NCBI GenBank assembly: GCA_016188865.1
Contig: JACPGX010000001.1
Span: 205,197 to 269,196 of the forward strand
Direction of reading: 5' to 3'
DNA length: 64,000 bases
From: Candidatus Nealsonbacteria bacterium
GTDB taxonomy: Bacteria; Patescibacteriota; Minisyncoccia; Minisyncoccales; MHMH01
Shown: positions 133-58,607 of the stretch, in pieces
Numbering within the stretch: position 1 is the first letter of the stretch
How the letters are laid out: the number at the start of each line of letters is the position of its first letter
The notes under the pieces: model-generated
What the model was told of the DNA's origin: nothing
Seen by the model: the letters and a program-made list of their open reading frames with translations, nothing else
Database searches by the model: none
Program-made: the position numbers and the translations under genes

Positions 133-163
133 AAAAATACACCGGTTGAACCGGTGTATTTTT
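133..163. repeat. REP-1 hairpin, 3'-flank copy (aaaaatacaccggtt-g-aaccggtgtattttt)
   Basis: 31-nt perfect palindrome overlapping the RAYT-1 stop codon (162-164). The T-run makes it terminator-like. Confidence 0.9.
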
Positions 164-899
164 ATTCTAAAATTATATTTTTAATTATTTCGAAGCCGGA
201 TTTCAACTCAGTTTTATATAAAATCCAATCTTCAACAGATTTTTTAATTTTATCGGAACTGCCGAAAAATTCTGTAACGAAATCTCTTTTTGTAACTGAC
301 GGAAAATTTGGTATTCCGATATAATCTAAATAGCTAGACCAGCGATATGATTCCAAAAATTTAACAGCTTCCTCAACATCTTTTACTCCCACTTCTTTCC
401 AGTTTTTTTCTAATAATTCAAGCGGATTAGTAAATATATAACAAATCAAAGCCATTAATTGTCTATCATCTTCCACGTGAACTGCTTTAAAACGACCCTG
501 GAATAAAGCGCCAATCCCTTTTCTATTATATTTTTCATTAAAGTATCCAGTATAACCATTAGATAATTTTTTCATGAAAAGAGAAATCCCGCCATCAACT
601 AATTGATGCAAAATTAAATGGTAGTGATTTGGCATCAAACAAAAGCTAATAATCTCTACTAGCGGCTCTCTTTTATCTTTACGATCAGATACACCGGTTG
701 AACCGGTGTATTTCTTATTTTCTTTACGGATTTCTATACGGTCACGCATCTTAACTAATTTTTTATCATTTAATTCATAAAGACAAAAAATAAATCTAAA
801 ATTATCAGAGATTTGCTGAAAAATATTTCTTCTTTCTACTCCCCTATTAAAAATATGATAAATCTGGCCAGTAATAAATTTGGGTCGTTTTATTGCCAT
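162..899 (-). CDS. REP-associated tyrosine transposase-like protein (IS200/Y1 HUH family), paralog 1
   Basis: HUH strand FCLMPNHYHLIL and Tyr helix CYIFTNP. N-terminus MAIKRPKF..GQIYHIFNRG aligns with the paralogs at 26070 and 50608. Start trimmed from 929 to ATG 897-899 by that alignment. Confidence 0.85.
   Translation of the reverse strand: MAIKRPKFITGQIYHIFNRGVERRNIFQQISDNFRFIFCLYELNDKKLVKMRDRIEIRKENKKYTGSTGVSDRKDKREPLVEIISFCLMPNHYHLILHQLVDGGISLFMKKLSNGYTGYFNEKYNRKGIGALFQGRFKAVHVEDDRQLMALICYIFTNPLELLEKNWKEVGVKDVEEAVKFLESYRWSSYLDYIGIPNFPSVTKRDFVTEFFGSSDKIKKSVEDWILYKTELKSGFEIIKNIILE
689..711. repeat. REP-1 hairpin, internal in-frame copy
   Basis: atacaccggtt-g-aaccggtgtat lies inside the RAYT-1 ORF and is translated KYTGSTGVS. 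Confidence 0.9.
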
Positions 900-923
900 A
901 CCTAATTTAATATACCACATAAG

Positions 924-946
924 ATACACCGGTTCAACCGGTGTAT
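924..946. repeat. REP-1 hairpin, 5'-flank copy (loop base c instead of g)
   Basis: atacaccggtt-c-aaccggtgtat lies 24 nt upstream of the RAYT-1 ATG. Confidence 0.9.
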
Positions 947-2848: not shown

Positions 2849-4159
2849 CTATTCAGTGCGGGATTCAAGTACAACCTTAAAAATCAATTCTTTTCCGCTC
2901 CTAAAAACTTTCAGGACAACTTCATCTCCAGAATTATATTTTTGCATGATTTTTGCCAAAGAATTTTCAGCAGTTATTTTTTCACTATTGAATTCTAAAA
3001 TAATATCTGCCTCTTTAAGGCCTGCTTTTTCTGCGGCAGAATTAGGCAAAATAGCAGCTTCTCCCTTGCCGGTTACAAGCCAAGCGCCGTAAGAAACTGG
3101 CAAGTTATTATCTTGCTGAATTTTTTCTGTGATAATGGTGTATTTTATTCCTAAAAAGGGATAAATAATTTTCCCTGAATATTTAACTTGCTCAATATCT
3201 CTTTTAGCTTTATTGACCGGTATGGCAAAGCCAATGTTTTGAGCTTCAAGGACTGTGGCCGTGTTGATTCCAACGACTTCGCCCATTAAATTCAAAAGGG
3301 GGCCGCCCGAATTGCCTTTGTTGATTGCCGCATCTGTTTGAATAACATCCTCAATGGTTTCCACTAGACCGCCGCCTTCGGCAGTAATTGTTCTGCCCAA
3401 ACCGGAAATTACTCCAACGGAAATGGTATTCCTAAATTCGCCTAAAGCGTTTCCAATGGTAATGACTGTTTGGCCAATCTGCAGTTTGTCAGAATTACCG
3501 AGCTCAACCACTGGAAAATATTTTTGAATCAGCTGGCCCGAATCGTCAATTCGGCTTTTCGTTTCAATTCTTAATACGGCTAAATCCTGTAGAGGATCTC
3601 TAGCTAAAACTTTTGCTGAAAACTTTTTTCCATCATTGGTAAAAACAGTGTAATCCGCTTCCTCGTCTAGAACTACGTGTTTATTAGTTAAAATCATGCC
3701 ATCTTCAGAAACAATGAAGCCGGTACCTCCGCCAATTTCTTTCTTTTCCGTTCCTATTTGGCGCTTCTGAGGAACGCCAAAATTAAAAGGCTCCCCAAAA
3801 ATCTGTTCAAATTCCTGAAAAGGATTAATGTAATACTGCTCAAAAACCGGCAAATCCTTGCTAATAACAATGCTAACTACAGCCGGAGAGGCAGTTTTAA
3901 TCACATTGATAATTTTTTCCTCTTCAGTAGTTTGAGGAATATATTCTTTTTCAATTGCTTTTTCTGGAGATGGGGTGCTAAACTTTGAAAGATAGTCTTT
4001 GGCTTCAAAATAAAAAACGCTGCCGGAAATAATGCCTGCCAAAAAGCCAAAAAATGAAGACGCAAAAATAATGGATGCAAAAATCCAAAAAGTCTTATTT
4101 TTCCAGAACTTGGGGAATTTTATTTTTATATTAGGAGAATCCAAATCGTAAAGCGTCAT
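2849..4159 (-). CDS. htrA: HtrA/DegP-type trypsin-like serine protease with C-terminal PDZ domain
   Basis: TM anchor, TNKHVV, GNSGGPLLN, and a PDZ-like tail. ATGA overlap with the iscU stop. Confidence 0.9.
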   Translation of the reverse strand: MTLYDLDSPNIKIKFPKFWKNKTFWIFASIIFASSFFGFLAGIISGSVFYFEAKDYLSKFSTPSPEKAIEKEYIPQTTEEEKIINVIKTASPAVVSIVISKDLPVFEQYYINPFQEFEQIFGEPFNFGVPQKRQIGTEKKEIGGGTGFIVSEDGMILTNKHVVLDEEADYTVFTNDGKKFSAKVLARDPLQDLAVLRIETKSRIDDSGQLIQKYFPVVELGNSDKLQIGQTVITIGNALGEFRNTISVGVISGLGRTITAEGGGLVETIEDVIQTDAAINKGNSGGPLLNLMGEVVGINTATVLEAQNIGFAIPVNKAKRDIEQVKYSGKIIYPFLGIKYTIITEKIQQDNNLPVSYGAWLVTGKGEAAILPNSAAEKAGLKEADIILEFNSEKITAENSLAKIMQKYNSGDEVVLKVFRSGKELIFKVVLESRTE

Positions 4160-5631
4160 TTTTTAAATTTTTGATTGTAATCGTCAACTGCAGCTTTTAA
4201 AGCTGACTTAGCTAAGTAAGAGCAATGAACTTTAGCCGGCGGAACTTCACCAAGCTCTTTGACGATATCTTTATAGTCGATTTTTAATGCCTCTTCAATT
4301 GTTTTTCCTTTAACCACTTCGCACATTATATCAGAAATGCTTATGGCGTGCCCGCAATTATGTACCGCAAAACCTTTAACTAAATAAGAATTGGGCGTTC
4401 CGTCTACCAACATATTATATACATATCCTGCATATTTGCTTCTAATTATTTTTTTGATGGGCACAAGGAAATAATTTTTCGTGAAATAAACAAAATTATG
4501 ACCTTTTCTTTTCAGCCTAAAGAAAACATCGTAAATCGGCCCAGATGACACCTTGCGACCTTCTATATAATTTCTCGATGGGTCAAATTTTCTTTTTCTA
4601 ATACTGGAAAATATCTTGCATCTCGCCAAAATTTCTTGCATTTGGATGGCCAAATCTTTGGAGGCGGTCGTTATCTCGTATCGCGGATAATCTCCCACTC
4701 TCCGTACCGAAGACGAGCCATCTCCTTTAATATAAGTTTTAATCATTTCCCATTGTTTTTTAGACGGCAAAACTAGTATCTCATCAGCTAATTTCTTTTG
4801 AGTAGCGTAGCTTCCGCAAATTTTCTTAAAAAATTTACACCACTGCCTAGAGCAAATATAAATTTCGATGACATTGCCCCTAATTCTTTCTTTGGGAACC
4901 TTTTTTGTAACATCGATAAGTAATTTCTGGAGCTCTGCAATATTATCTTTTTCATTTTTATTAAGGGAGAAGTTTAATGCTCCACTATTAGCCGTAACGT
5001 ATCCCTCTGCCAGATAATAACCGATTAATTTCATTATTTTTGAAGTAAATTGAGGATTGTCTTTTATTTTTCTATTAGAAACATAAACAAGGTAATCACC
5101 CCTTACTAATTCTCCGGCGAATACAGGGTCGGGTTTTTTAGACAAAAGCTCATCTTTTTTAATTTTGAGCCAATCGCATTTTTTGTTATAGCGTCGAGCA
5201 GATTTAAGCTTATTCCTTTTTATGCAAAACACTGGATGTTCGGAAGTGACAGAAAATTTATTAAATGGTGAAACAAAAGGCAGTAAAGTCAACATCGGAC
5301 CGCTATATTTTCTTTTAAATGTTTTGAGCACTGTCGTTGCTCGACCATTGCTATTTAAAACTGTTTTACCTTTCTTAATTGTAGAAATTGCACCCCAATC
5401 TCCCTCATTAAATAACACTTCTCCTTTAGGCGGTAGACATCCAAAAGTTTCGAACTTTACATCTTCAATAATTTCTTTTCCTCCGACTTTCTTTACTTTT
5501 ATGTACATTTTCATAACGTCTCCGCAGCGCATATTCTGGGTATCGCCAATGCCCGAGGCATCTTTAATTTTACCCATATTTTTAGGATGAAGAAAATGCT
5601 CTATGACTTTTTTGCTATAGTAAGGTTTCAT
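4156..5631 (-). CDS. iscU: IscU/NifU-type Fe-S scaffold interrupted by an intein
   Basis: Exteins: 64 aa ending ..NMRCGDVM..KFETFG, and 66 aa beginning CGHAISISD..KVHCS. Spliced, they give the canonical TFGCG..HCS IscU core. Confidence 0.9.
   Translation of the reverse strand: MKPYYSKKVIEHFLHPKNMGKIKDASGIGDTQNMRCGDVMKMYIKVKKVGGKEIIEDVKFETFGCLPPKGEVLFNEGDWGAISTIKKGKTVLNSNGRATTVLKTFKRKYSGPMLTLLPFVSPFNKFSVTSEHPVFCIKRNKLKSARRYNKKCDWLKIKKDELLSKKPDPVFAGELVRGDYLVYVSNRKIKDNPQFTSKIMKLIGYYLAEGYVTANSGALNFSLNKNEKDNIAELQKLLIDVTKKVPKERIRGNVIEIYICSRQWCKFFKKICGSYATQKKLADEILVLPSKKQWEMIKTYIKGDGSSSVRRVGDYPRYEITTASKDLAIQMQEILARCKIFSSIRKRKFDPSRNYIEGRKVSSGPIYDVFFRLKRKGHNFVYFTKNYFLVPIKKIIRSKYAGYVYNMLVDGTPNSYLVKGFAVHNCGHAISISDIMCEVVKGKTIEEALKIDYKDIVKELGEVPPAKVHCSYLAKSALKAAVDDYNQKFKK
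4357..5439 (-). mobile_element. Full-length intein (361 aa) with LAGLIDADG homing-endonuclease domain
   Basis: Cys1 (CLPPKG..), block B TSEHP, LAGLIDADG motifs LIGYYLAEGYV and YIKGDGSS, terminal VHN followed by +1 Cys. Confidence 0.85.
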
Positions 5632-9025: not shown

Positions 9026-9067
9026 GAGGTCCGACCTCCCGACAAATATGACGGGAGGTCGGACCTC
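9026..9067. repeat. PE hairpin element, intergenic copy (gaggtccgacctcccg-10 nt-cgggaggtcggacctc)
   Basis: 16-bp perfect stem. Arms are identical to the copy inside tsaD (34384-34425). Confidence 0.9.
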
Positions 9068-10994: not shown

Positions 10995-12281
10995 TTAGAT
11001 GATTTGTTCAATATTCATTGTTCCCATTTTTTCTCCCTCAATAAAGCCCTCCATGGCAGCTTCAGCCAGATAGCCCTGCCGGATCCAATCATTAAGCCAC
11101 TGGTAAGCATATCTGGGATTTTCCTGCAGGCTGCCAAAACCTGATTTCAAAAGCCACCTTTTGTTAAATTCTTCCTGAGAACCAATGGGCGGGGCTATAA
11201 TTATGGGCAATCCCAAAGCAGAATAAAAAGAAAGCTCGGATGGCTTAGTCCACAAAATATCGGTTTTTCTCAGAGCTTCATTAAATTTCTGAAAATAATC
11301 TTCGATATTTTCTTCAAAAATAATCTCTATACTAGGATTGCCTTTTAGCTTTAATTTTTCTAAATTATGCTCAAAATATTCCTTAACTTTTTCTTTAATG
11401 CCAGCGACTAAAATCACCTTAAGTTCTTTCGCCCATATTTTTACTACCAGCGATTTAGCAATCTGGATGCCGATTTCTCTCTGAGCCCCGGCTCCTCCAA
11501 CGGCAAACATTATAGTTAAAGGATGGTCCGAAGATGATGGTAAGTTTCCAAGATAGGTTTCAAGCAAATGCTCGTATTTGCTAAGGTATCTTTTTTGCGG
11601 ATCTAAATTTAAAATTCTACTGCCCAAATCATCTTTAAGATTGCGCATTTCTTCCCCGTCAATAATATCTTGGGGCAAGGGATACCCTGTAAAAAAAATA
11701 TTCTCCGACTTTATCCCGTAAGCTTTAAGTCTCTCCACCACCCTAAGATTGGGAGCGCAATACTTTATTCTGCTCCTACCCGGCTCGAGGGGGGCCCAGG
11801 TTCTGGAAATGTCGGCATCGGCAACAACGCAAAAAATCTCGCCAGGGTAATTAAAGTATTCAGCCATAAAAGCTGGCACGAAAAACGTAGTGACAAATGG
11901 CAAATTTCCGTTCCTCAATTTTAATTCTTCAATAAGATGTCTGCCCCAGTTTTTTTTAATCAGGGAGTAAATTTGTTTTAGCTGAATATTCGACTTAGAC
12001 AAGTCTCTTTTGGGATAATAGCTTAAAATTTCTTGAAGCTTATCCATAACGGCAAAAGCCAGCTGACCAATGATGGGAATCCGTTTGATCCGGGAAATAA
12101 ATTCATAAAATTTTCTTGATTTTTCCCAGATATTCCTGTCTTTGGAAGGAATTCCTTCGTAATTGTTGGCATTGATGATTTTTCCCTCCAAAGCCAGGTG
12201 CCTCAAAGGATAAGCAGTCCTTTGGTGCCCGTAACCCATGTTTACCGCTACCACCCAGGCTTTTTTAGTTGTACTTGCCAT
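10995..12281 (-). CDS. GT-B glycosyltransferase, MGDG-synthase/UgtP-like
   Basis: N-terminal VAVNMGYGH motif and a central GGAGAQ. Overlaps the comEC stop by 34 nt. Confidence 0.5.
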   Translation of the reverse strand: MASTTKKAWVVAVNMGYGHQRTAYPLRHLALEGKIINANNYEGIPSKDRNIWEKSRKFYEFISRIKRIPIIGQLAFAVMDKLQEILSYYPKRDLSKSNIQLKQIYSLIKKNWGRHLIEELKLRNGNLPFVTTFFVPAFMAEYFNYPGEIFCVVADADISRTWAPLEPGRSRIKYCAPNLRVVERLKAYGIKSENIFFTGYPLPQDIIDGEEMRNLKDDLGSRILNLDPQKRYLSKYEHLLETYLGNLPSSSDHPLTIMFAVGGAGAQREIGIQIAKSLVVKIWAKELKVILVAGIKEKVKEYFEHNLEKLKLKGNPSIEIIFEENIEDYFQKFNEALRKTDILWTKPSELSFYSALGLPIIIAPPIGSQEEFNKRWLLKSGFGSLQENPRYAYQWLNDWIRQGYLAEAAMEGFIEGEKMGTMNIEQII

Positions 12282-13684
12282 ACACGTTTATTGTACCACC
12301 AAATAAAGCCAAACAGAATGAAATAAAAAACTATCAGCCAAAGCCAGTGCAAATTGCCCACAGCCATGGAAACTAACGGCATTTTGCTAAACCAATCAAC
12401 AATTTTCGTAATATATGTCAAAGAAAGCCAAACGGGCCAAGACAATAAAAACCCAAGAGGTTGCAAGATAATACCGAAAATTGCAAAAATAAAAATTAAG
12501 ATAGTAATTGGAGCCAAAAAGGGAACTATTAAAATATTAACAACAGGACTCAATAAGGATATTCTGCCAAAATTATAAGCTAAAATCGGCAAAGTAAAAA
12601 CTTGGGCCGAAAGAGTAGCAGATAAAGTGGTTCTTAATGGAAAAACTTTTGGATTAGGTAAAAGCCTTAGCCAATTTGAAAAATACGGCTCTAAATAAAT
12701 AAGGCCTAAAATGGCTAAAAAAGAAAGCTGGAAACCTACGTCTTTCGTCAAGAGAAAAGGATTTTGAACAAGCATAAAAGTTGCCGCAAAAAATACCGCT
12801 CTTGAGCCGGATGACATGCGTCCTAATTTTTTAGCTAAAATAAAAATAACGGCCATAATAAAAGCCCTGACAGCTGAAGCCTGGGCTCCGATCATTAAAA
12901 TGTAAAGAAAAAGCAAAACTATCGAAATATAAAACGGCGCAAAGGAAGATATTATAGAAGAAATAATGGTTATATTCATTCCGGAAACCGCCGCAATATG
13001 GCGGGTGCCGGTAATATTGAGCTTGTCTTTCCATTCTCGGGAAATATTAGATTCTTGGCCGAAAACTAATGCCTCCAAAAAACCTTCTTGCGGCGGCGAA
13101 ATAAAAGAACCGGCGGTATCTCTAAATTTATTTTTAAAAGATAAAATAATTTCCATTATCGGGTTGCCAAACCCGGAACTCATAAACTCAATTTTTGGAA
13201 AACTCATTACTGCCGTAATGCCGTCTTTTTTAAGATAATCACGATAGTTAAAATCATCGAAAACCGGCGGCATTTCCAAACGGCCAATAATTTTTAGTCT
13301 ATCCCCATAATTATATTTCGGATACCTCCCCGCCGTCACCAAAATCGGGCGAGAACCGTTCTCGCCCGATTTTATCACAAGCTTTATGCTAGCAGGCCTG
13401 ACATCGGGTTCTTTAACCACGATTCCGACAAACTCGACATTCCCTTCTTGGGGATAAACAATTTTTGACTCCGCCATCTGATACCGCCAAATTCCCAAAA
13501 CTAAAAACAGTAAGCAAAATCCGCCCGTAGCCAGTTTTTTATAACGCCAAAAAATTGAAATTAAAAATACTCCAATAATTAAAAAACCCAGTAAAAATAA
13601 CTGGGGCATAAAAATAAATGAACTCGCAAAAATTCCTCCTACAAACGCCAGACAAAAATACAAAAATATCCGCGACTTAGTCAT
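12248..13684 (-). CDS. comEC: ComEC/Rec2 DNA-uptake channel protein (no metallo-beta-lactamase domain)
   Basis: N-terminal TM plus OB-like region, HIAAVSGMNITI, many TM segments. Confidence 0.85.
   Translation of the reverse strand: MTKSRIFLYFCLAFVGGIFASSFIFMPQLFLLGFLIIGVFLISIFWRYKKLATGGFCLLFLVLGIWRYQMAESKIVYPQEGNVEFVGIVVKEPDVRPASIKLVIKSGENGSRPILVTAGRYPKYNYGDRLKIIGRLEMPPVFDDFNYRDYLKKDGITAVMSFPKIEFMSSGFGNPIMEIILSFKNKFRDTAGSFISPPQEGFLEALVFGQESNISREWKDKLNITGTRHIAAVSGMNITIISSIISSFAPFYISIVLLFLYILMIGAQASAVRAFIMAVIFILAKKLGRMSSGSRAVFFAATFMLVQNPFLLTKDVGFQLSFLAILGLIYLEPYFSNWLRLLPNPKVFPLRTTLSATLSAQVFTLPILAYNFGRISLLSPVVNILIVPFLAPITILIFIFAIFGIILQPLGFLLSWPVWLSLTYITKIVDWFSKMPLVSMAVGNLHWLWLIVFYFILFGFIWWYNKRVWQVQLKKPGW
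13341..13373. repeat. REP-3-like hairpin variant in-frame in comEC (aaaatcgggcgagaac-c-gttctcgcccgatttt)
   Basis: 33-nt perfect palindrome translated KSGENGSRPIL. It shares the core cgagaaccgttctcg with REP-3. Confidence 0.85.
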
Positions 13685-13777: not shown

Positions 13778-13823
13778 AAAAAATCGTATTATTATTGCCA
13801 TGGCTTTAATTTTACGATTTTTT
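13778..13823. repeat. Imperfect palindrome aaaaaatcgta..gccatggc..tacgatttttt at the 3' end of the 13822-14400 gene
   Basis: Related to the palindrome at 14414-14449. Could act as a terminator and/or a second operator. Confidence 0.6.
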
Positions 13824-14400
13824 ATAAATTAAACGCTTTCCTTAGCTCTCTGTCATCGCCCAAATTTTCAGCTACCACCAAACGCAACTCTTTTTCTAGC
13901 AAACCAAAAAATGTCCGCAATAAATCTATCTCAGCCCGACAATCGAAAGGATAAACCCAAATGCTTTTCTGAAACTGATAAAATCCCAATGTCTTTAATT
14001 TACTTCTGAAAGCATCTCGATGAAACTTTTTAAGTTGGGCGATGTCAAACATTACCATTCTCCATTTATCGTCCCACTTCTTTGGTTTGGCAATTTTTAA
14101 ATTATCGATCTGCAGCCATCCGGCTTTTTTCTTTCCTTCCCTTGTCAGAGAAATGCATATTTGGTGATTATTTTCTTGAATATTAATTAACCCTTGTTTT
14201 CTAAAATGATAGAAAGTATCAGAAACTTTCTGCTTGGGATATTTTTTAAATTTTTGGTGATATTTTAAAAGATTGGTTAGAAAACAGGGTGAAGTAGCCG
14301 CAATAGACACCGCTCCAGCGATCATTAACCAGCGAAAGATGTCTTTCCCAATTTCCGATTTTGGTTTTGTAAAATAATATTTATATTTTCTTATACTCAT
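13822..14400 (-). CDS. PaaX-like / Cas2-fold domain protein with N-terminal TM and wHTH-like segment
   Basis: WRMVMFDI..LKTLGFYQFQKSIWVYP resembles the Cas2/PaaX_C ferredoxin-fold pattern. No SD sequence before the ATG. Confidence 0.5.
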   Translation of the reverse strand: MSIRKYKYYFTKPKSEIGKDIFRWLMIAGAVSIAATSPCFLTNLLKYHQKFKKYPKQKVSDTFYHFRKQGLINIQENNHQICISLTREGKKKAGWLQIDNLKIAKPKKWDDKWRMVMFDIAQLKKFHRDAFRSKLKTLGFYQFQKSIWVYPFDCRAEIDLLRTFFGLLEKELRLVVAENLGDDRELRKAFNL

Positions 14401-14413
14401 ATTAATAAATAAT

Positions 14414-14449
14414 ATCGTATAATTAACGCCATGGCAATAATTATACGAT
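14414..14449. promoter_or_regulatory. 36-nt near-perfect palindrome (atcgtataatta..gccatggc..taattatacgat); candidate operator over the promoter
   Basis: Lies 14-49 nt upstream of the ATG at 14400 and contains TATAAT-like boxes. Confidence 0.5.
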
Positions 14450-14522
14450 AAATATTATGAATTATCCGTTACTGCTTACCTAAAAATAAAAAAGTGTCGA
14501 AATGACACTCCTTTGGCTACTC

Positions 14523-22575: not shown

Positions 22576-23037
22576 ATGTTAATCGTCGGTCTGGGCAATC
22601 CGGGGAAAAAGTATAAAAATACCCGGCATAATGTCGGCCATATGGTTATTGATGAATTAGAGAAAGAAAATCTCGATGGTTTTACTTTGGCAAAAACCGA
22701 TGCTTTTATGAATGAATCCGGTATGGCAGTTAAAAAATTAACTAAAAACTATAAACTAAAAACCATAAACCTGGTTATAGTTCACGACGATATTGATTTG
22801 CCTTTAGGTGAATTCAAAATACAGAAAGGCCGGGGAGCAGCCGGACACAAGGGCGTGCAATCGGTTATAAATGAATTAAAAACAAAAGATTTTTGGCGAG
22901 TACGAATCGGCATCTGCCCCAAGGGGGGAAAACCTGCAAATGTTGAAAAATTCGTTTTGCAAAACTTCACCAAAGAAGAACAAAAAATTCTAACTGGAAT
23001 AATTTCCGAAATCCCAAATTACCTCCCGAAGGTGTAG
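22576..23037 (+). CDS. pth: Peptidyl-tRNA hydrolase (short, 153 aa)
   Basis: GLGNPG..Y..TRHNVG and HDDIDLPLG. The last 5 codons lie in the hairpin at 23021-23055. Confidence 0.88.
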   Translation: MLIVGLGNPGKKYKNTRHNVGHMVIDELEKENLDGFTLAKTDAFMNESGMAVKKLTKNYKLKTINLVIVHDDIDLPLGEFKIQKGRGAAGHKGVQSVINELKTKDFWRVRIGICPKGGKPANVEKFVLQNFTKEEQKILTGIISEIPNYLPKV

Positions 23038-23055
23038 CGTAAACCTTCGGGAGGT
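23021..23055. repeat. 13-bp perfect hairpin acctcccgaaggt/accttcgggaggt spanning the pth stop codon
   Basis: The left arm encodes ..YLPKV and the stop codon sits in the loop. Confidence 0.8.
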
Positions 23056-23973: not shown

Positions 23974-24009
23974 TGTGTACTATATATCACATATAGATGG
24001 AAAAGTCAA
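23958..24009. promoter_or_regulatory. Face-to-face promoters sharing one palindromic -10 box: TTGACA-17-TATATA-17-AGTCAA
   Basis: Plus strand: -35 at 23958-63 and -10 at 23981-86, driving mfd (ATG 23997). Minus strand: -35 is revcomp of 24004-09 with the same -10, driving the NUDIX leader. Confidence 0.55.
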
Positions 24010-26024
24010 CGGTGCCGGGTGTTAAATCGATTCTAATCGTCAGTATCAACCCCTACTTTTTAGACAGGGAGAATTTTTGGTTTGAAGAAAATATCAAACA
24101 AATACTGGAAGCGCGGAAAAATCAAACCTTCTTTCAAGATAATACCATATATGTAGACGTAGAAAAAAGCCCCGCCTTCGCCAAGGCTTCGGCGGGCAAG
24201 CAGAAAATTAAGCTTTCTGAATTTTTAAGAAAAATTGATGAAATGGGCTATGAAAAAGTTCAAAAGGTCTCCGAGCCCGGAGAATTTTCCCGCCAAGGAG
24301 GAATTATTGATATTTTCCCGTTAAATATAAATTGTGCCGTTAGAATTGAATTTTTCGGCAACTCAATAGAAAACATGGAAAAACTGCCCATTATTATTGA
24401 AAATGAAAAAGAAATCAAAGAAAGAATAAAAAATAAACTGAAAAGGCAGAAAATTTACTCGCAATTGGGAACATTAAAGCCGGGTGATTATTTGGTGCAT
24501 CTAGACCACGGCGTCGGAATTTACAGAGGTCGGACCTCCCAAGGAGGTCCGACCTCAAACGACTCAAACGATTACTACACATTGGAATATGCCCAGAACG
24601 ATAAACTCTATGTTCCGATTGGGCTGGAAAGAAAACTTTCAAGATATGTTGGATTTTCAGAGCCGAAAATATCGCGGCTAAGCTCGCCCGTCTGGATAAA
24701 CACCAAAAGAAAAATTAAAGAAGAAACTGAAAAACTAGCTAAAGAACTTTTGGAAATTTACGCCCAGAGAGAAATTTCAACTCGCCCATATTATATAGAA
24801 GATACGGAAATTGACGCCTTGCTGGCAAGTACTTTTGTTCACGAAGAAACTCCGGATCAAATCCAAGCCATGGAAGAAATTAAAAAAGATTTGGAAGAAA
24901 AAGAAGAGCCAATGGACAGAATTGTTTGCGGCGACGTGGGTTTTGGCAAAACTGAAATTGCCTTAAGGACCATTATTAAAGCGGTCAATTCCGGATATCA
25001 ATCGGCTTTGATTTGCCCAACCACTATTTTGGCCTCGCAGCATTGCCAGACTTTCCAAAAAAGAATTGGTGATCTTCCGATAAAAGTTGAATTATTAAGC
25101 CGTCTTCAATCAAAGAGGGAGCAGAAACAAATAATTCAAAATATCAAAGATGGCAAAACAGATATCGTTATAGGAACCCACCGCCTTTTATCAAATGACG
25201 TTAACTTTAAAAACTTAGGATTGCTGGTTATTGACGATGAACAAAGATTCGGAGTCAGGCAGAAAGAAAAATTAAAAAAAATAAGGACTTCCCTAGATGT
25301 TTTATCGCTTTCAGCCACGCCAATTCCCAGAACCCTCTACTTGGCCATGTCTTCTTTAAAAGATATCAGCATAATTCAAACGCCGCCTGCTCAACGGCTT
25401 CCGATTAAAACTTTGGTAAAACCATGGTCAAAAGAAATCATTAAAAAGGCAATTCAGGAAGAAATTTCGCGCAACGGCCAAGTTTATTACCTGCACAATC
25501 GCGTAGAAACTATTGAAACAGCAAAAAAATTGCTGGAAGATTTACTGCCGAAAGTAAAATTTGGAATTATCCACGGCAAAATGGAAGAAAAAAATTTAAT
25601 AAAGATAATGGATGATTTTACCAATAAAAAAATTGGCGTTTTAATCGCTACCACCATTATTGAAAACGGCCTGGACCTGCCCAATGTCAACACTTTAATT
25701 GCGGCCAATGCCGCCAAACTCGGACTTTCCCAGGCATATCAAATAAGAGGCAGAATCGGCAGGTCGCACATTCAGGCATTCGCTTATTTCTTGCATGGCG
25801 GCAATCTTTCTGAGCTAGCAAAGGAAAGATTAAGAGCTTTAAAAGAGGCGGAAGAGCTTGGTTCGGGATACCGAATTGCCATGAAAGATTTGGAACTTCG
25901 GGGCGCCGGCAACATTCTAGGAAAAGAGCAATCAGGCAACATCAACCATGTGGGACTGAATCTATATTGTCAAATGTTATCCGATGCGATTGAAAAACTG
26001 AAGGCTTACGATTATAATAAATAA
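23997..26024 (+). CDS. mfd: Transcription-repair coupling factor Mfd (short form, 675 aa)
   Basis: RNAP-interaction module PGDYLVHLDHGVGIY, helicase motifs DVGFGKTE and DDEQRFG, and a TRG-like region. Confidence 0.9.
   Translation: MEKSTVPGVKSILIVSINPYFLDRENFWFEENIKQILEARKNQTFFQDNTIYVDVEKSPAFAKASAGKQKIKLSEFLRKIDEMGYEKVQKVSEPGEFSRQGGIIDIFPLNINCAVRIEFFGNSIENMEKLPIIIENEKEIKERIKNKLKRQKIYSQLGTLKPGDYLVHLDHGVGIYRGRTSQGGPTSNDSNDYYTLEYAQNDKLYVPIGLERKLSRYVGFSEPKISRLSSPVWINTKRKIKEETEKLAKELLEIYAQREISTRPYYIEDTEIDALLASTFVHEETPDQIQAMEEIKKDLEEKEEPMDRIVCGDVGFGKTEIALRTIIKAVNSGYQSALICPTTILASQHCQTFQKRIGDLPIKVELLSRLQSKREQKQIIQNIKDGKTDIVIGTHRLLSNDVNFKNLGLLVIDDEQRFGVRQKEKLKKIRTSLDVLSLSATPIPRTLYLAMSSLKDISIIQTPPAQRLPIKTLVKPWSKEIIKKAIQEEISRNGQVYYLHNRVETIETAKKLLEDLLPKVKFGIIHGKMEEKNLIKIMDDFTNKKIGVLIATTIIENGLDLPNVNTLIAANAAKLGLSQAYQIRGRIGRSHIQAFAYFLHGGNLSELAKERLRALKEAEELGSGYRIAMKDLELRGAGNILGKEQSGNINHVGLNLYCQMLSDAIEKLKAYDYNK
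24526..24556. repeat. PE hairpin element, short-loop copy in-frame in mfd (gaggtcggacctcc-caa-ggaggtccgacctc)
   Basis: 14-bp perfect stem translated RGRTSQGGPTS. The arm sequence matches the copies at 9026 and 34384. Confidence 0.9.
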
Positions 26025-26030
26025 ATTATC

Positions 26031-26057
26031 AATCTTACGAGGCGAAGCCTCGTAAAT
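26031..26057. repeat. REP-2 hairpin, 5'-flank copy (ttacgaggc-gaa-gcctcgtaa)
   Basis: Lies 12 nt upstream of the RAYT-2 ATG. Confidence 0.9.
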
Positions 26058-26069
26058 TCGTAAATTTTA

Positions 26070-26783
26070 ATGAAGAGAGTAATATTCGCCAAAGATCAAA
26101 TCTATCATGTTTATAATCGCGGTGTAGAAAAACGAAATATCTTTTTAGATGATAAAGATTATTTTCGGTTTATTCACAATCTCTTTGAATTTAACGATGA
26201 AAAACCAGCAGAAAATATTTATTATAAACAACCAATGCTTCAGTCGCAGAAAATACAATCTTACGAGGCTTCGCCTCGTAAGATTAATATGCCTAGAAAA
26301 TTACTAGTAGAAATTATGGCATTTTGTCTGATGCCCAATCACTATCATTTATTGCTAAGACAAAAACAAGATAGGGGGATCACCAGATTTATGCAAAAAT
26401 TAGGTACTGGATATTCTATGTATTTTAATCAAAAGCACGAAAGAACCGGAATTTTATTCCAGGGACCGTTCAAGGCCATTTTAGTCGATAGGGAAACTTA
26501 TTTTTATTATTTACCATATTACATTCACTTTAATCCCCTAGATTTGATTGAGCCAGAATGGAGAAATGGCAAAATTAATAATTACAAAGAAGCCTTAAAT
26601 TTTCTGGAAAATTATCGCTGGTCAAGCCATCTTGATTATATTGGCAAGAAAAATTTTCCCTCGGTGACCCAACGGGAATTTCTTTTAGAATACCATCAAA
26701 ATGGAAACCGATATAAACAATCTATTGAAAATTGGCTAAAAGAAATACAACTAGAAAAAATAAAAGATATAATGCTGGAATAA
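26070..26783 (+). CDS. REP-associated tyrosine transposase-like protein (IS200/Y1 HUH family), paralog 2
   Basis: DQIYHVYNRG, FCLMPNHYHLLL, YYIHFNP. Confidence 0.85.
   Translation: MKRVIFAKDQIYHVYNRGVEKRNIFLDDKDYFRFIHNLFEFNDEKPAENIYYKQPMLQSQKIQSYEASPRKINMPRKLLVEIMAFCLMPNHYHLLLRQKQDRGITRFMQKLGTGYSMYFNQKHERTGILFQGPFKAILVDRETYFYYLPYYIHFNPLDLIEPEWRNGKINNYKEALNFLENYRWSSHLDYIGKKNFPSVTQREFLLEYHQNGNRYKQSIENWLKEIQLEKIKDIMLE
26257..26285. repeat. REP-2 hairpin, internal in-frame copy (loop inverted: ttc)
   Basis: aatcttacgaggc-ttc-gcctcgtaagatt, translated QSYEASPRKI. Confidence 0.9.
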
Positions 26784-26811
26784 ATCTTACGAGGCGAAGC
26801 CTCGTAAGATT
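26783..26811. repeat. REP-2 hairpin, 3'-flank copy
   Basis: aatcttacgaggc-gaa-gcctcgtaagatt, starting at the last base of the stop codon. Confidence 0.9.
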
Positions 26812-32701: not shown

Positions 32702-32784
32702 GGGCGAGTGGTGGAATGGCAGACACGATGGATTCAAAATCCATTGAGCGCAAGCTCATGAGAGTTCGACTCTCTCCTCGCCCA
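32702..32784 (+). tRNA. tRNA-Leu (anticodon CAA), class II, no encoded CCA
   Basis: Acceptor GGGCGAG/CUCGCCC plus discriminator A. Anticodon arm AUGGA-UUCAAAA-UCCAU. Long variable arm GAGC-GCAA-GCUC. T arm GAGAG-UUCGACU-CUCUC. Confidence 0.92.
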
Positions 32785-33094: not shown

Positions 33095-33584
33095 TAGTTA
33101 ACCAGCCAGAAATAACGCCGACTATCGCTCCGGCTAAAATATCTGAAGGCCAATGAACTCCCGCAAAAACGCGCGCAATTGAAATTAAGAAGCTGGCAAT
33201 AAAAACCCATATGCCGGCTTTTTTGTTATATTTATAAACAACAAAAGACAGGGCAAAGAAAAAAGCAGCATGACCCGAAGGAAAAGACGCTTGATTGACT
33301 TTATCAATAAGCAAATTGATATGGTTTTCAATGAAAGGTCGCGGCCTTGGCCACAGCCAGCGAATCAATTCCACAACAGCAAAACGAGCAATAAATGACG
33401 CTAAAAATGCCTGAAAAATTATTTTCCATTTATTTACCTGCCTGCCGGCAGGCAGGTAGAATAATAAAATAATTAAAGCAACTAAAATATAGCCAAGATA
33501 TTTGGCGGAAAAAACAGCTAAATTATCCAGCCAAGCATATTGGCCTGCTAAATTATTTATTTTTTGGAATAAAAAATAGTCCAT
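33042..33584 (-). CDS. PAP2-family phosphatase (undecaprenyl-diphosphatase-like)
   Basis: PSGHAA and SRVFAGVHWPSD motifs, with several TM segments. Confidence 0.85.
   Translation of the reverse strand: MDYFLFQKINNLAGQYAWLDNLAVFSAKYLGYILVALIILLFYLPAGRQVNKWKIIFQAFLASFIARFAVVELIRWLWPRPRPFIENHINLLIDKVNQASFPSGHAAFFFALSFVVYKYNKKAGIWVFIASFLISIARVFAGVHWPSDILAGAIVGVISGWLTIIFLQRFFSIAKKSQPL
33435..33458. repeat. 24-nt loop-less perfect palindrome tacctgcctgcc|ggcaggcaggta in-frame in the PAP2 gene
   Basis: Translated YLPAGRQV. A GC-rich island within an AT-rich gene. Confidence 0.8.
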
Positions 33585-33586
33585 AT

Positions 33587-34648
33587 TTAGGAGATCCGTA
33601 AATTAGCTTCGGCTTTAATATTTTTTCTGACGTCTTTTCTGTGGAAATAAGCAGTTGCGGCCACCATTGCGGCATTGTCGGTGCACAAATTTTTTGGCGG
33701 AACCAAAAAATTTAGTTTATAGTTTAGAGTTTTTAGTTTATAGTCGAATTGTTTTCTTAACTCTTCATTCGCTGCTACGCCGCCTCCAAGAATGATTGAT
33801 TTTACTCCAAAATCCCTTGCTGCCTTTATGGTCTTATGCATCAAAACATCAATTATCGCCTGCTGAACTTCGTAACACATCTCTATTTTATCATAATTAC
33901 CCTTTTTTACTTTATATAATACGGCTGTTTTAAGACCGGAAAAACTAAAATCATAATTTTTTTGCCTAATCATCGGCCTCGGCAGTTGGTCGGAAACCCG
34001 ACGTCCGACCATTTTTGCGGCTGTGGCTGCAATAGCTGGGCCACCGGGATAGCCGAGGCCTAAAATCCTGGCAACCTTATCAAGGCATTCGCCAGCTGCG
34101 TCATCACGAGTTTCGCCTATTAATTTATATTTTCCGATAGCTTTCATCAAAACTAACTGCGTATGCCCACCCGACACCACCAAAGCCACCGCCGGAAAAA
34201 CTATTGAGGCCGGGCCTCCATAGTGTTCGCTAATGAAATTGGCGAGAATGTGCGCTTCGATGTGGTTGACTGAAATTAATGATTTTTTATATTTTTTTGC
34301 AATTTCTTTGGCAAAGTTGATCCCCTGCCATAAACAGGGTTCTAATCCTGGGCCGACGGTCACGGTGACGAAATCAATTTTTAGAGGTCCGACCTCCCGT
34401 AATATTTTTCGGGAGGTCGGACCTCCTAATATTCTCAAAACTTTTTCAAAGACAACCGGTAAATTCTTTTGATGCTCGCGTTTCGCTAAGAAGGGATAAA
34501 CCCCTCCATATTTTGCGTGGATTTTCACTTGCGAAGAGACTGTATTTGATATAATTTTGAAATTAGAATTTTTTACTTCCAGTAAAGCAATGGCTGTATC
34601 ATCGCAGGAAGTGTCAATTCCTAATATCTTAATATTTTGGGAGGCCAT
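33587..34648 (-). CDS. tsaD: tRNA N6-adenosine threonylcarbamoyltransferase TsaD
   Basis: GIDTSCDDT, VNHIEAH, CTDNAAM. Confidence 0.95.
   Translation of the reverse strand: MASQNIKILGIDTSCDDTAIALLEVKNSNFKIISNTVSSQVKIHAKYGGVYPFLAKREHQKNLPVVFEKVLRILGGPTSRKILREVGPLKIDFVTVTVGPGLEPCLWQGINFAKEIAKKYKKSLISVNHIEAHILANFISEHYGGPASIVFPAVALVVSGGHTQLVLMKAIGKYKLIGETRDDAAGECLDKVARILGLGYPGGPAIAATAAKMVGRRVSDQLPRPMIRQKNYDFSFSGLKTAVLYKVKKGNYDKIEMCYEVQQAIIDVLMHKTIKAARDFGVKSIILGGGVAANEELRKQFDYKLKTLNYKLNFLVPPKNLCTDNAAMVAATAYFHRKDVRKNIKAEANLRIS
34384..34425. repeat. PE hairpin element, in-frame copy inside tsaD
   Basis: gaggtccgacctcccg-10 nt-cgggaggtcggacctc, translated GGPTSRKILREVGP. This gives about 11 extra residues relative to E. 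coli TsaD as recalled. Confidence 0.9.
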
Positions 34649-35154
34649 ATGGTTAAATCAATAACTTTTGATGGTTTGGCTTTTTTAAGATTGCCAGCAT
34701 CAACCGCCAAGTCGGGCTGATGCCTTTTGCCTTCAAATTGTTTTATCACTTCTTTAATTTTCGTTGAAGCCGGCTGGCCTGATATATTCGCCGAAGTTTC
34801 CGCCAAAGGGCCCGTGTGCTTGACTAAGTCAAGCACAAATTTATAGTTAGGAATGCGAATACCGGGCTTTTTATAATGAAAAACCGCTGTCACCGGCCCC
34901 GGCCAAACTCGTTTAAGAAATTTTTCCTGTCTGGGATTGATCTCGGCTAATTTTTTAGCCATTTTGATATCGCTGACAAAAATAGGTATCAATTTATTTT
35001 TGGGCCTCTTTTTTATTTTATATAATCTTGCAACCGCTTCTTTATTCCCGGCATCGCAAATCAACCCGTAAACTGTATCGGTGGGACAAATAATCACTTT
35101 GCCCTCCTTTATGGCCTTAATTACTTTTTTAAGATTTGGCTTGGTAATCTCCAT
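34621..35154 (-). CDS. tsaC: L-threonylcarbamoyladenylate synthase (TsaC/YrdC/Sua5 family)
   Basis: PTDTVYGL and SANISG. Confidence 0.9.
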   Translation of the reverse strand: MEITKPNLKKVIKAIKEGKVIICPTDTVYGLICDAGNKEAVARLYKIKKRPKNKLIPIFVSDIKMAKKLAEINPRQEKFLKRVWPGPVTAVFHYKKPGIRIPNYKFVLDLVKHTGPLAETSANISGQPASTKIKEVIKQFEGKRHQPDLAVDAGNLKKAKPSKVIDLTIWPPKILRY

Positions 35155-44299: not shown

Positions 44300-44330
44300 A
44301 ATATAAAACCTCGGTTAAAAACCGAGGTTT
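44300..44330 (-). terminator. Terminator of the dehydrogenase/OFOR operon
   Basis: aaacctcgg-loop-ccgaggttt followed by UUUUAU. Confidence 0.7.
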
Positions 44331-44339
44331 CTTTTTCTG

Positions 44340-44364
44340 ATGTAACGGGTCGTACCCGTTACAT
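44340..44364. repeat. Hairpin atgtaacggg-tcgta-cccgttacat (copy 2 of 2, perfect)
   Basis: Abuts the stop codon of the dehydrogenase gene. Confidence 0.8.
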
Positions 44365-50576: not shown

Positions 50577-50607
50577 AAAACTGACGAGAACCGTTCTCGT
50601 CAGTTTT
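50577..50607. repeat. REP-3 hairpin, 3'-flank copy (aaaactgacgagaac-c-gttctcgtcagtttt)
   Basis: Ends one base before the RAYT-3 stop codon. Preceded by a partial duplicate, ctgacgaaaa. Confidence 0.9.
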
Positions 50608-51333
50608 TTATTCGATGGCAACACGTTGAGAATCAGCTAATTCTTTTTTGAACTGAAGCCAATCGTTAACGAATCTTTGCCCTTCGCCCGCTCCGCCGAC
50701 TGTTTCAAATAAAAACTCTCTGCTGGTTACTGAAGGAAAATTCCTCTTGCCTAAATAGTCAGAATAACTTGACCATCGGTAATTTTCTAAAAATTCTATT
50801 ATTTCTTGCAATTTCCTGCCGCTAATTCCCCTTTCCTTCCAATTCTGAACTAAAATTGCCACTGGGTTTGTATGAATATAAACGAAAACTGTTATTAATT
50901 GTTTATCATCTTTAACGTGGACTATTTTATATTTTCCCTGAAACAGGTGGCCACTTCTTTTATATTTTTTATTATAATATCCGCCGTATCCCGCCCCAAT
51001 TTTTCTCATAAACTTGCTTATTCCTCCATTTCTTAACTGTCTTACCAGCAGATGCGCGTGATTCGGCATCAAACAAAACGCTAAAATCTCCAATAAACAT
51101 TCCCTGCCCGTATGTCTTTTATACGAACTATCTAAACTGACGAGAACGGTTCTCGTCAGTTTTTGTTCTTGACGATAGTATGAAGAAGTAGGTTTTTCAT
51201 CATTGAATTCAAATAAATCATGAATCATTCTAAAATAATCTTTTTGATCTTTGAAAAGCTTTAACCCTTCTACGGCTCTAATAACGATGTGATAAATTTC
51301 GCCGTTTACTAATGGTGGTCGTTTTATTGGCAT
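50608..51333 (-). CDS. REP-associated tyrosine transposase-like protein (IS200/Y1 HUH family), paralog 3
   Basis: GEIYHIVIRA, FCLMPNHAHLLV, VYIHTNP. Confidence 0.85.
   Translation of the reverse strand: MPIKRPPLVNGEIYHIVIRAVEGLKLFKDQKDYFRMIHDLFEFNDEKPTSSYYRQEQKLTRTVLVSLDSSYKRHTGRECLLEILAFCLMPNHAHLLVRQLRNGGISKFMRKIGAGYGGYYNKKYKRSGHLFQGKYKIVHVKDDKQLITVFVYIHTNPVAILVQNWKERGISGRKLQEIIEFLENYRWSSYSDYLGKRNFPSVTSREFLFETVGGAGEGQRFVNDWLQFKKELADSQRVAIE
51134..51162. repeat. REP-3 hairpin, internal in-frame copy (centre g)
   Basis: aaactgacgagaac-g-gttctcgtcagttt, translated KLTRTVLVSL. Confidence 0.9.
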
Positions 51334-51364
51334 AAAACTGACGAGAACCGTTCTCGTCAGTTTT
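51334..51364. repeat. REP-3 hairpin, 5'-flank copy
   Basis: Starts at the base next to the ATG (51331-33), leaving no room for an SD sequence. Confidence 0.9.
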
Positions 51365-51401
51365 ATTATAACGGAATAAATTTAAATGAAAAGCCCTGAG
51401 C

Positions 51402-55966: not shown

Positions 55967-55996
55967 TCAACAAAAAAGGACGCTAGGCGTCCTTTG
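55967..55996 (-). terminator. Terminator/-35 cassette, copy 1 (caacaaaaaaggacgctaggcgtcctttg)
   Basis: On the minus strand this reads AAAGGACGC-CUA-GCGUCCUUUUUU, followed directly by GTTGAC. Confidence 0.75.
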
Positions 55997-57590: not shown

Positions 57591-57621
57591 AAAACTGACG
57601 AGAACCATTCTCGGCAGTTTT
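57591..57621. repeat. REP-3 hairpin, solo degenerate copy (two mismatches) acting as a terminator
   Basis: aaaactgacgagaac-c-attctcggcagtttt. Confidence 0.8.
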
Positions 57622-57958: not shown

Positions 57959-58041
57959 ATTATATTCACCTCCTTTTTAATGTGCCGCATAATTATAGAG
58001 TACATCTTAGTTCAACGCAAAAAATCTGTCAAGACATCGTA

Positions 58042-58087
58042 TTACGAGACCCGGACTCGTAAAAAATTACGAGTCCGGATCTCGTAA
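58042..58087. repeat. Inverted REP doublet (REPIN-like): ttacgag-acccgga-ctcgtaa / ttacgag-tccggat-ctcgtaa
   Basis: The two hairpins are reverse complements of each other apart from one base. Their stems equal the REP-2 stem. Confidence 0.8.
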
Positions 58088-58104
58088 AACTAGCGGAAAC
58101 CGAA

Positions 58105-58134
58105 ACAACAAAAAAGGACGCTAGGCGTCCTTTG
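58105..58134 (-). terminator. Terminator cassette, copy 2
   Basis: Hairpin identical to copy 1. The -35 part is degenerate (TTGTTG). Confidence 0.7.
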
Positions 58135-58577: not shown

Positions 58578-58607
58578 GTCAACAAAAAAGGACGCTAAGC
58601 GTCCTTT
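58578..58607 (-). terminator. Terminator/-35 cassette, copy 3 (loop taa); contains the etfA stop codon
   Basis: The 5' arm encodes the EtfA C-terminus ..TKDA. GTTGAC follows. Confidence 0.75.

Follow-up and report, generated by a model that had tools for sequence, protein, structure and literature searches.

The window analyzed here, a 64-kb stretch of DNA from Candidatus Nealsonbacteria, carries on its minus strand a gene of the ComEC/Rec2 family (12248-13684, 478 amino acids), and the subject of this report is a short palindrome that lies within that gene. The encoded protein (MBI2450118.1) has a DUF4131 domain with an oligonucleotide/oligosaccharide-binding fold (OB-fold) at residues 29-166 and a Competence channel domain at residues 206-464 (both Pfam), has no beta-lactamase domain, and matches the ComEC/Rec2-related model of NCBIfam; its homologs carry the annotation ComEC/Rec2 and come from Candidatus Nealsonbacteria. 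The palindrome, at 13341-13373 and assigned to neither strand, is a perfect one of 33 nucleotides (nt), aaaatcgggcgagaac-c-gttctcgcccgatttt, in which two 16-nt arms of 100% complementarity enclose a centre of 1 nt (16+1+16). Read on the minus, coding strand it is AAA TCG GGC GAG AAC GGT TCT CGC CCG ATT TTG, that is, K105-SGENGSRPI-L115. We consider it likely to be an intragenic, in-frame copy of a repetitive extragenic palindromic (REP) sequence. An earlier reading of this DNA, made from its letters and translations and referred to below as the sequence-only reading, had described a perfect 33-nt palindrome in comEC translated as KSGENGSRPIL, and this description was confirmed.

Folding of the 116 nt around the palindrome as RNA gave a z-score of -3.6, with the hairpin as the dominant helix. 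In an AlphaFold2 model of ComEC (mean pLDDT 76.8), strands at residues 99-106 and 114-119 flank the turn that the hairpin encodes, and residues 105-115 are predicted to be the beta2-beta3 turn of the N-terminal OB-fold (DUF4131) domain. An alignment of 34 ComEC proteins and a survey of 119 homologs placed the hairpin peptide in a hypervariable loop between the conserved segments ...EPDIR..S.KL.I and LVTT.RYPEY. Across the 119 homologs the loop varied from ~4 to ~40 residues, and this wide variation in length and sequence, together with the position at a beta turn, indicates that the loop is tolerant of a hairpin.

P0002, at 78% identity the closest homolog, shows a short VVGNVLV (VGNV) loop at this point and no hairpin, and in distant outgroups the loop is K-P-E-N-I-x-G-K, which we refer to as the ancestral type. 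The loop in the window is seven residues longer than that of the closest homolog and one residue longer than the ancestral type. The hairpin state is five codons longer than the ancestral-type loop, E-N and I-E-G-K/R being common to both, and the clade of the window has additionally lost four codons (EGRV), a loss that created the ATT TTG that now serves as the T-clamp of the stem. The sequence-only reading had proposed that the ~11 residues might stand out as an insertion when ComEC homologs were aligned. With these lengths, a clean insertion was not borne out.

REP families that share the comEC core

The apical part of the comEC palindrome, the core CGAGAAC-N-GTTCTCG at 13350-13364, is common to the comEC hairpin, to its orthologs in other ComEC genes, and to two REP families that accompany transposase genes. 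We name these families REP-c and REP-d, and their transposases, with two others found in the window, RAYT-a to RAYT-d, after the REP-associated tyrosine transposases (RAYTs). Four exact copies of the core CGAGAACNGTTCTCG are present in the window (starting at 13350, 50585, 51141, and 51342) together with two that have one mismatch, and shuffled sequences lead to an expectation of 0.09. The window also contains 19 perfect hairpins whose arms reach 11 nt or more, versus 0.33 in Markov simulations. Both the abundance of hairpins and the recurrence of the core are far beyond chance.

Three of the exact core copies bracket or lie in RAYT-c, a gene for a RAYT-like Y1 (HUH) transposase of 241 amino acids (50608-51333, minus strand; Pfam Y1_Tnp PF01797, E = 6e-11; 100% identical to MBI2450159.1). 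They belong to REP-c (CTGACGAGAAC, called REP-3 in the sequence-only reading), whose consensus is AAAACTGACGAGAAC-N-GTTCTCGTCAGTTTT. One copy, AAAACTGACGAGAAC-C-GTTCTCGTCAGTTTT, lies immediately downstream of the RAYT-c stop codon (50577-50607); a second lies inside the gene, in frame, and is translated KLTRTVLVS (51134-51162, residues 58-66); and a third lies upstream (51332-51366), where its stem takes in the first two bases of the start codon. This upstream hairpin leaves no space for a free ribosome-binding site of RAYT-c, and in its position at the ATG it resembles the translation-blocking hairpin of IS200. A fourth, decayed copy, AAAACTGACGAGAAC-C-ATTCTCGGCAGTTTT, is intergenic (57591-57621).

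The HUH motif of RAYT-c is PNHAHLL and its tyrosine motif is YIHTNPV; H92, H94, and Y152 are invariant in the three transposase paralogs of the window and in 29 homologs. Against the NCBIfam model REP_Tyr_transpos the protein scored 45.2 bits, which is below the 80-bit cut-off, and a phmmer search of a RAYT-like protein against the PDB gave no match. A profile of the family matched the HUH region of ISDra2 TnpA weakly (E = 0.047). Because of the score below cut-off and the lack of a PDB relative we call these proteins RAYT-like and do not regard them as certified RAYTs.

A search for homologs of RAYT-c found two paralogs, P0132 (72% identity) and P0217 (62%), on the same 271,219-nt Nealsonbacteria contig that carries ComEC. 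The DNA of the first of these, RAYT-d, was found on L101, a separate 6.6-kb Logan contig derived from the same genome or population, where a gene at 3827-4549 has a product 100% identical to P0132. RAYT-d has on both sides a family of its own, REP-d, with the pattern AAAATAGG[T/G]CGAGAAC... and the sequence AAAATAGGTCGAGAAC-G-GTTCTCGACCTATTTT, which lies downstream (4551-4583), upstream (3801-3819), and inside the gene, in frame, as NRSRTVLDS (4003-4021). In total L101 has four copies of the core, and an intergenic variant of REP-d, AATAGGGCGAGAAC-G-GTTCTCGCCCTATT, lies at L101:5339-5367. A REP variant GGGCGAGAAC...GTTCTCGCCC occurs twice.

The intergenic variant and the comEC hairpin have 21 consecutive nucleotides in common, GGGCGAGAACgGTTCTCGCCC, as well as the A/T clamps, and they differ by a single base pair. 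Read in the frame of ComEC the variant would give K*GENGSRPI. The change from TAG to TCG deletes that stop codon, and on the other arm the change from CCT to CCG is synonymous (Pro) and restores the pair. By this comparison the closest relative of the comEC hairpin is the REP family of RAYT-d, which lies outside the window, and not REP-c. The sequence-only reading had compared the hairpin with REP-c. The 15-nt core is indeed identical to that of the REP-c copies flanking RAYT-c, and the outer stem TCGGG/CCCGA has changed on both arms relative to the CTGA/TCAG of REP-c with its pairing intact, as claimed, but REP-d provides the better comparison. The same reading had suggested a search for a RAYT paralog flanked by such hairpins, and RAYT-d, with REP-d on both sides and one copy a base pair away from the comEC hairpin, largely provides it.

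The comEC copy therefore has most of what is expected of a REP, in that it is a short (20-40 nt) stem-loop palindrome, is repeated in the genome, and has a cognate Y1/HUH transposase flanked by repeats of its core. It departs from the name in not being extragenic, as it lies inside an open reading frame (ORF) and in frame, an exception that has been documented for other REPs.

Orthologous hairpins and the constraint on the stem

A scan of a genome collection gave 75 ComEC loci; a scan of metagenome contigs for ComEC returned no members of the close clade. At least 12 other Nealsonbacteria-type ComEC genes with recovered DNA (56-78% protein identity), 13 with that of the window, carry the same core at the same position of the loop and in the same codon register, and most of the 13 have the same spacing: K, two codons, the core, three codons, and G[KR]. 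The outer stem differs among them. L001 has a perfect 16+16 palindrome, AAAATCATACGAGAAC-G-GTTCTCGTATGATTTT, with another outer stem (TCATA/TATGA); L002 has ten perfect pairs (AAAAACAGTCGAGAAC-G-GTTCTCGACTCATTTT); and L007 has a 12+12 stem (CACTACGAGAAC-G-GTTCTCGTAGTG). In L100 (ACGGAGAAC-G-GTTCTCCGT) a C:G pair of the core has become G:C, compensated on the other arm, and in L085 (TACGGGAAC-A-GTTCCCGTA) an A:T pair of the core has become G:C, the change from TCT to TCC on the right arm being synonymous. The copies in L005, L006, L014, L023, L034, L098, and L099 are partly decayed; the L099 peptide, KSVENSSRPI-EGR, is clearly homologous to the KSGENGSRPI of the window.

Because orthologous copies keep the same codon register in many ComEC lineages, the element is old and largely vertically inherited, not a recent insertion. 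The view of the sequence-only reading, that a diverged REP family member had colonised a coding region without breaking the frame, thus stands as regards family membership, frame, and pairing, and does not stand as regards fresh colonisation, since at least 12 other ComEC genes carry the hairpin. As evidence against itself that reading had named the same peptide in relatives that lack REPs. The same peptide was found in relatives, but in those relatives the DNA hairpin is present too.

Comparison of the orthologous stems revealed a constraint on pairing. Stem cells were paired in 81-83% of cases (with 11 and then 13 orthologs), and seven pairs had changes on both sides. The covariation score was 0.27, versus 0.11-0.13 in shuffles, none of which reached it (0/500), and 0.03-0.13 when the partner column was slid. 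The core was constrained at the level of its codons as well: GAG, AAC, GGT, and TCT make up 24%, 24%, 15%, and 26% of their codon families in this genome (product 0.0022), and yet 11 of the 13 orthologs have no synonymous change in any of the four, while synonymous sites elsewhere in comEC are near saturation (~70-80% nucleotide identity). The two exceptions fit a constraint at the DNA level, for the TCC of L085 restores a pair and L034 has AAC changed to AAT in a decayed copy. In RAYT genes, and in a DprA gene within its linker (L016:309), this core DNA is translated in a different frame, as TRTVLV. That the core is kept, including four rare codons, as the outer stem changes only in pairs, argues for a constraint on the DNA and not on the peptide. 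We infer a constraint on the nucleic acid that is sequence-specific in the apical part and symmetric between the strands.

Origin and upkeep of the comEC hairpin

Overall, our data make it likely that the palindrome is a REP copy within a gene and in its frame, from the family with the apical core given above, that this family is tied to a clade of RAYT-like Y1 transposases found in Nealsonbacteria, and that the copy is old, constrained as DNA, and tolerated by its host gene. Most likely the apical core would be preserved because its cognate Y1 transposase putatively recognizes it, because REP copies exchange sequence with one another, or for both reasons. A hint of such exchange is that the window copy and the intergenic REP-d copy of the same genome have a derived G:C pair next to the core where the orthologs have T:A or A:T. 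The arms may be kept identical through intrastrand template switching, with selection for pairing as the alternative. The comEC copy itself would be a passenger that ComEC tolerates, one that has given a surface loop a new shape and has no required role in the protein, because the closest relative has no hairpin and several lineages have let theirs decay.

Several points weigh against this interpretation. The covariation statistics come from 13 related sequences, REP-d was read on the Logan contig L101 and not on the NCBI contig itself, and the exact TCGGG variant of the outer stem has a single occurrence in the available DNA. The small gain in length and the residues common to the hairpin loop and the ancestral-type loop do not demonstrate a simple insertion of a whole REP, and activity of the Y1 transposase on these hairpins is putative. 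In addition, the distribution of the hairpin on the ComEC tree is patchy, and the closest homolog, P0002, lacks it. Around the loop (13100-13500, codons ~80-130) the nucleotide identity of the window comEC to L003/P0002 is 0.62-0.68, versus ~0.80 elsewhere in the gene, and in the same region its identity to the hairpin-bearing L001, L005, and L006 is 0.77-0.79, which suggests that comEC is a mosaic or recombinant gene. The patchy tree and the mosaic identity leave room for recombination or repeated gain.

Repeated gain would take the form of recurrent site-specific insertion, in which the ComEC loop of each lineage was independently invaded or overwritten by a REP variant from that lineage. 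We regard this as unlikely, although it accounts for a number of observations: hairpin-bearing and hairpin-less ComEC genes are interleaved on the tree; the derived G:C pair is found in the window copy and in the intergenic REP-d copy of the same genome and differs from the orthologs; and the peptide YYENGSRDI occurs both in the ComEC P0092 and in the RAYT homologs P0223-225 and P0229. Unrelated hairpins also occupy the same loop elsewhere, namely GTAGAGGACGGACCTCTAC in L025 (1689-1760) and a tandem pair, CCCGAGACC-g-GGTCTCGGG and TACGGGAAC-a-GTTCCCGTA, in L085 (5403-5470), and peptides such as YYETRPR and AEDRPLP are found there. What independent insertion does not readily explain is the constant codon register on both sides of the core, with flanking codons in common (ATA AAA ... 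ATT TTG GTG ACG) and flanking peptides that are homologous across lineages at 56-78% identity. Moreover, in other genomes the core is found almost nowhere else within 10 kb of ComEC, and this speaks against frequent re-insertion.

The covariation, the near-invariant core over deep divergence, and the high stability of the RNA hairpin could also reflect a regulatory role of the RNA or DNA structure in comEC, which might pause translation, act as an attenuator, or stabilise the mRNA. Our data give such a function little probability. The hairpin is not terminator-like, as four U follow the stem, and a terminator consensus scan did not report it (TTTT after the stem versus a criterion of at least five T in eight), so that the terminator or attenuator reading was rejected. 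At gathering score the Rfam 15 models matched nothing at the hairpin, and their sole match in the window was a tRNA (32702-32784). G.U and A.C cells were equal in number (8 and 8); this lack of a G.U excess on the sense strand, by which selection on a strand-specific RNA was rejected, favours neither strand and is expected for a palindrome at the DNA level. The closest homolog and many lineages have no hairpin or a decayed one, and the same element occurs in unrelated genes and in intergenic DNA.

Very improbable, in our view, is an origin in place by template switching at a quasipalindrome, in which a native ...GAG AAC was copied into the inverted arm and the likeness to REPs is a coincidence. 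It would suit the alignment of E-N and I-x-G-K with the hairpin-less loops and a net gain of ~12-15 nt, about the length of one arm, and it is known that hairpins can arise or become perfect through template switching (PMC7202029; bioRxiv 10.1101/2023.04.19.537475). Yet 21 nt of the hairpin recur in the intergenic REP next to RAYT-d, a paralog in the same genome, and 15 nt recur in REP-c; the same core is present inside ~100 RAYT homologs, within a DprA gene, and, in other genomes, as part of intergenic hairpins; and the hairpin-less loops use GAA AAT, not GAG AAC. This membership in a family makes pure coincidence very unlikely.

Least credible of all is that the peptide ENGSR is selected, for instance in a DNA-contacting loop of the OB-fold, or that the core is a motif of competence genes resembling a DNA-uptake sequence. 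In its favour are the ability of OB-fold loops to contact DNA, the fact that the gene concerned is comEC, and a second copy in the DprA gene of another genome. Nearly all lineages, however, retain the rare core codons (for each lineage a probability of 0.0022, given genomic codon usage), on which ground peptide-level selection was rejected, the peptide is absent from most homologs, the same DNA stands in a different frame elsewhere, and the core 7-mer shows no excess of the uptake-sequence kind (12 occurrences versus ~4 expected, 10 of the 12 in hairpins).

To return to the tolerated REP copy, we would put forward one extension of this interpretation, as a speculation that we ourselves think doubtful. 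REPs at fixed loci, including those in essential or competence genes and in RAYT genes, might evolve in concert through transposase-mediated copy-replacement, with the internal REP of the RAYT gene as a master or autoregulatory site. If so, the comEC hairpin would be a substrate that a domesticated Y1 system actively maintains in bacteria of the candidate phyla radiation (CPR), and not a decaying passenger.

Other hairpins and comparison with known systems

Two further paralogous Y1 transposase genes lie in the window. RAYT-a (162-929, minus strand) has the REP family ATACACCGGTT-N-AACCGGTGTAT, with copies at 133-163, 689-711 (internal and in frame, KYTGSTGVS), and 924-946; RAYT-b (26070-26783, plus strand) has the family AATCTTACGAGGC-NNN-GCCTCGTAAGATT, with copies at 26035-26055, 26257-26285 (internal and in frame, QSYEASPRKI), and 26783-26811. 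The four paralogs with DNA (RAYT-a, -b, -c, and -d) are ~45-72% identical and have mutually different REP families, one each. Each gene has its own REP at both ends and one internal copy in frame, at a homologous variable site before the HUH motif, and ~100 homologous transposases show peptides of hairpin type at this site in two frames, xRTVLx or ENGSR. We found no published description of an in-frame internal REP in each RAYT-like gene. RAYT homologs were also sought in 1.4 Mb of retrieved loci, and none was found outside the window.

Hairpins in coding DNA were observed in several other genes. The DprA gene of another Nealsonbacteria genome (L016:118-990, minus strand) contains at 299-321 the palindrome TCAACGAGAAC-a-GTTCTCGTTGA, which has the ComEC core and is read in frame (PSTRTVLVEN) in a linker, and DprA would thus be a second competence gene that hosts this REP core. 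In two other genomes the core is also present as intergenic hairpins downstream of an HtrA-like gene. Within the window, the TsaD gene (33587-34648, minus strand) contains at 34376-34433 a long, imperfect, in-frame hairpin of the GGAGGTCGGACCTCC type that coincides with a 12-residue insertion (~LRILGGPTSRKI) relative to the TsaD of T. maritima (PDB 6n9a). The Mfd/TRCF-like gene (23997-26024, plus strand) contains at 24526-24556 a perfect hairpin with 14-bp arms, GAGGTCGGACCTCC-caa-GGAGGTCCGACCTC, which is translated as GRTSQGGPTS within a loop of the RNA-polymerase-interacting domain, the loop being only two residues longer than in E. coli Mfd; relatives of this hairpin lie at 9026-9067 (intergenic) and 23021-23055. 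Perfect palindromes lie inside two more ORFs, TACCTGCCTGCCGGCAGGCAGGTA at 33435-33458 in a PAP2 gene and TGTGCTTGACTAAGTCAAGCACA at 34815-34837 in a Sua5/YrdC gene. In further ComEC homologs the loop peptides YYETRPRN, AEDRPLPI, and LAEGSPLEAE look hairpin-encoded, and the ComEC loop appears to be a recurrent landing or retention site for REPs.

The intergenic DNA of the window has hairpins of its own. One of near-core sequence, AAAGAGCGAGAA-gtg-TTCTCGCTCTTT at 961-987, is followed by a T-run on the minus strand, lies directly downstream of the minus-strand ORF at 998-2803, and resembles an ordinary terminator with a CGAGAA/TTCTCG stem. A family AAAGGACGCT-n-AGCGTCCTTT is present three times (55975-55995, 58113-58133, and 58587-58607), TTACGAGACCCGGACTCGTAA/TTACGAGTCCGGATCTCGTAA at 58039-58090 resembles the YYETRPR-type inserts of ComEC, and an adjacent pair of hairpins with 11-bp arms lies at 44306-44364. 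Just upstream of comEC, a small PaaX_M gene (Cas2-like domain; 13822-14400) has intergenic palindromes on both sides, which are AT-rich and imperfect (13778-13823 and 14401-14462; 27-31-nt arms, 77-85% complementary).

The comEC hairpin is of interest as a clean case from nature in which a coding sequence is constrained twice over, as a permissive surface loop and as a DNA palindrome that is kept paired, and in which synonymous changes on one arm compensate changes that the frame imposes on the other. It extends systems of the REP/RAYT type to the reduced genomes of CPR bacteria, where they appear to remodel loops of housekeeping proteins (ComEC, TsaD, Mfd, DprA). It also offers a handle on how REPs are kept up, whether through recognition by a transposase, exchange between copies, or correction by template switching, with the ComEC orthologs that have and lack the hairpin as a comparative series.

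In-frame palindromic repeats are not unique to this lineage. Rickettsia palindromic elements (RPEs) were reportedly described in frame in housekeeping genes by Ogata and colleagues in 2000 and 2002. They are the classic case of in-frame palindromic repeats (PMC3733652). The comEC element is like them in being an in-frame palindromic repeat in a housekeeping gene, in being tolerated at the protein surface, and in the keeping of orthologous sites among related species. Most RPEs are ~100-150 bp, are found in Rickettsia, and have no known cognate transposase, whereas the comEC element is 33 nt long, is RAYT-associated, and is found in Nealsonbacteria.

Closer still are the in-frame intragenic REPs with GTAG/CGTC tags described by Di Nocera et al. 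(2013, PMC3733652), which lie in functional genes, often ones of DNA repair or replication. As with the comEC copy, they are in frame, add a short extra peptide, and belong to genomes in which RAYT genes, too, have these REPs at their flanks. Those REPs have a conserved GTAG or CGTC tetranucleotide at one end of the unit, which is absent from the comEC copy and from REP-d, and REP-c has GACG/CGTC only in mid-stem. The core is another one, the host belongs to the CPR/Patescibacteria, the net change in loop length is small, and the element persists at orthologous sites over 56-78% protein identity with covariation of the stem. A literature search, within the library that could be searched, found no paper that combines RAYT or REPIN (paired REPs) with Patescibacteria.

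REPIN-RAYT systems persist vertically (Bertels & Rainey 2011, PMC3116915; Bertels 2017, PMC5581495; 'Ancient Darwinian replicators', bioRxiv 10.1101/2021.07.10.451892), and here, too, each RAYT paralog has its own flanking REP family and persistence at fixed loci appears vertical and long. They differ in that the elements described here are single perfect palindromes and not REP doublets with a spacer, that the transposases score below the curated RAYT cut-off, that each of these genes has its own in-frame REP, and that the comEC copy lies inside a coding region. With the Y1 transposases of the IS200/IS605 family, such as ISDra2 TnpA (PDB 2xm3), the RAYT-like proteins would have in common the HUH and tyrosine chemistry and the recognition of hairpins in single-stranded DNA, which here is predicted. 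Unlike in that family, the repeats are dispersed as solo hairpins, mobility of the gene is without support, and the match is very weak (E = 0.047).

Finally, template switching at quasipalindromes copies changes from arm to arm and can produce perfect palindromes and paired changes without selection (PMC7202029). It is a general mutational process with no element family, and alone it leaves the near-invariant core unexplained. In-frame intragenic REPs are thus already known from several bacteria. What is new here is the host lineage, the depth of orthologous persistence with covariation in which some compensating changes are synonymous, and the repeated occupation of a single ComEC loop.

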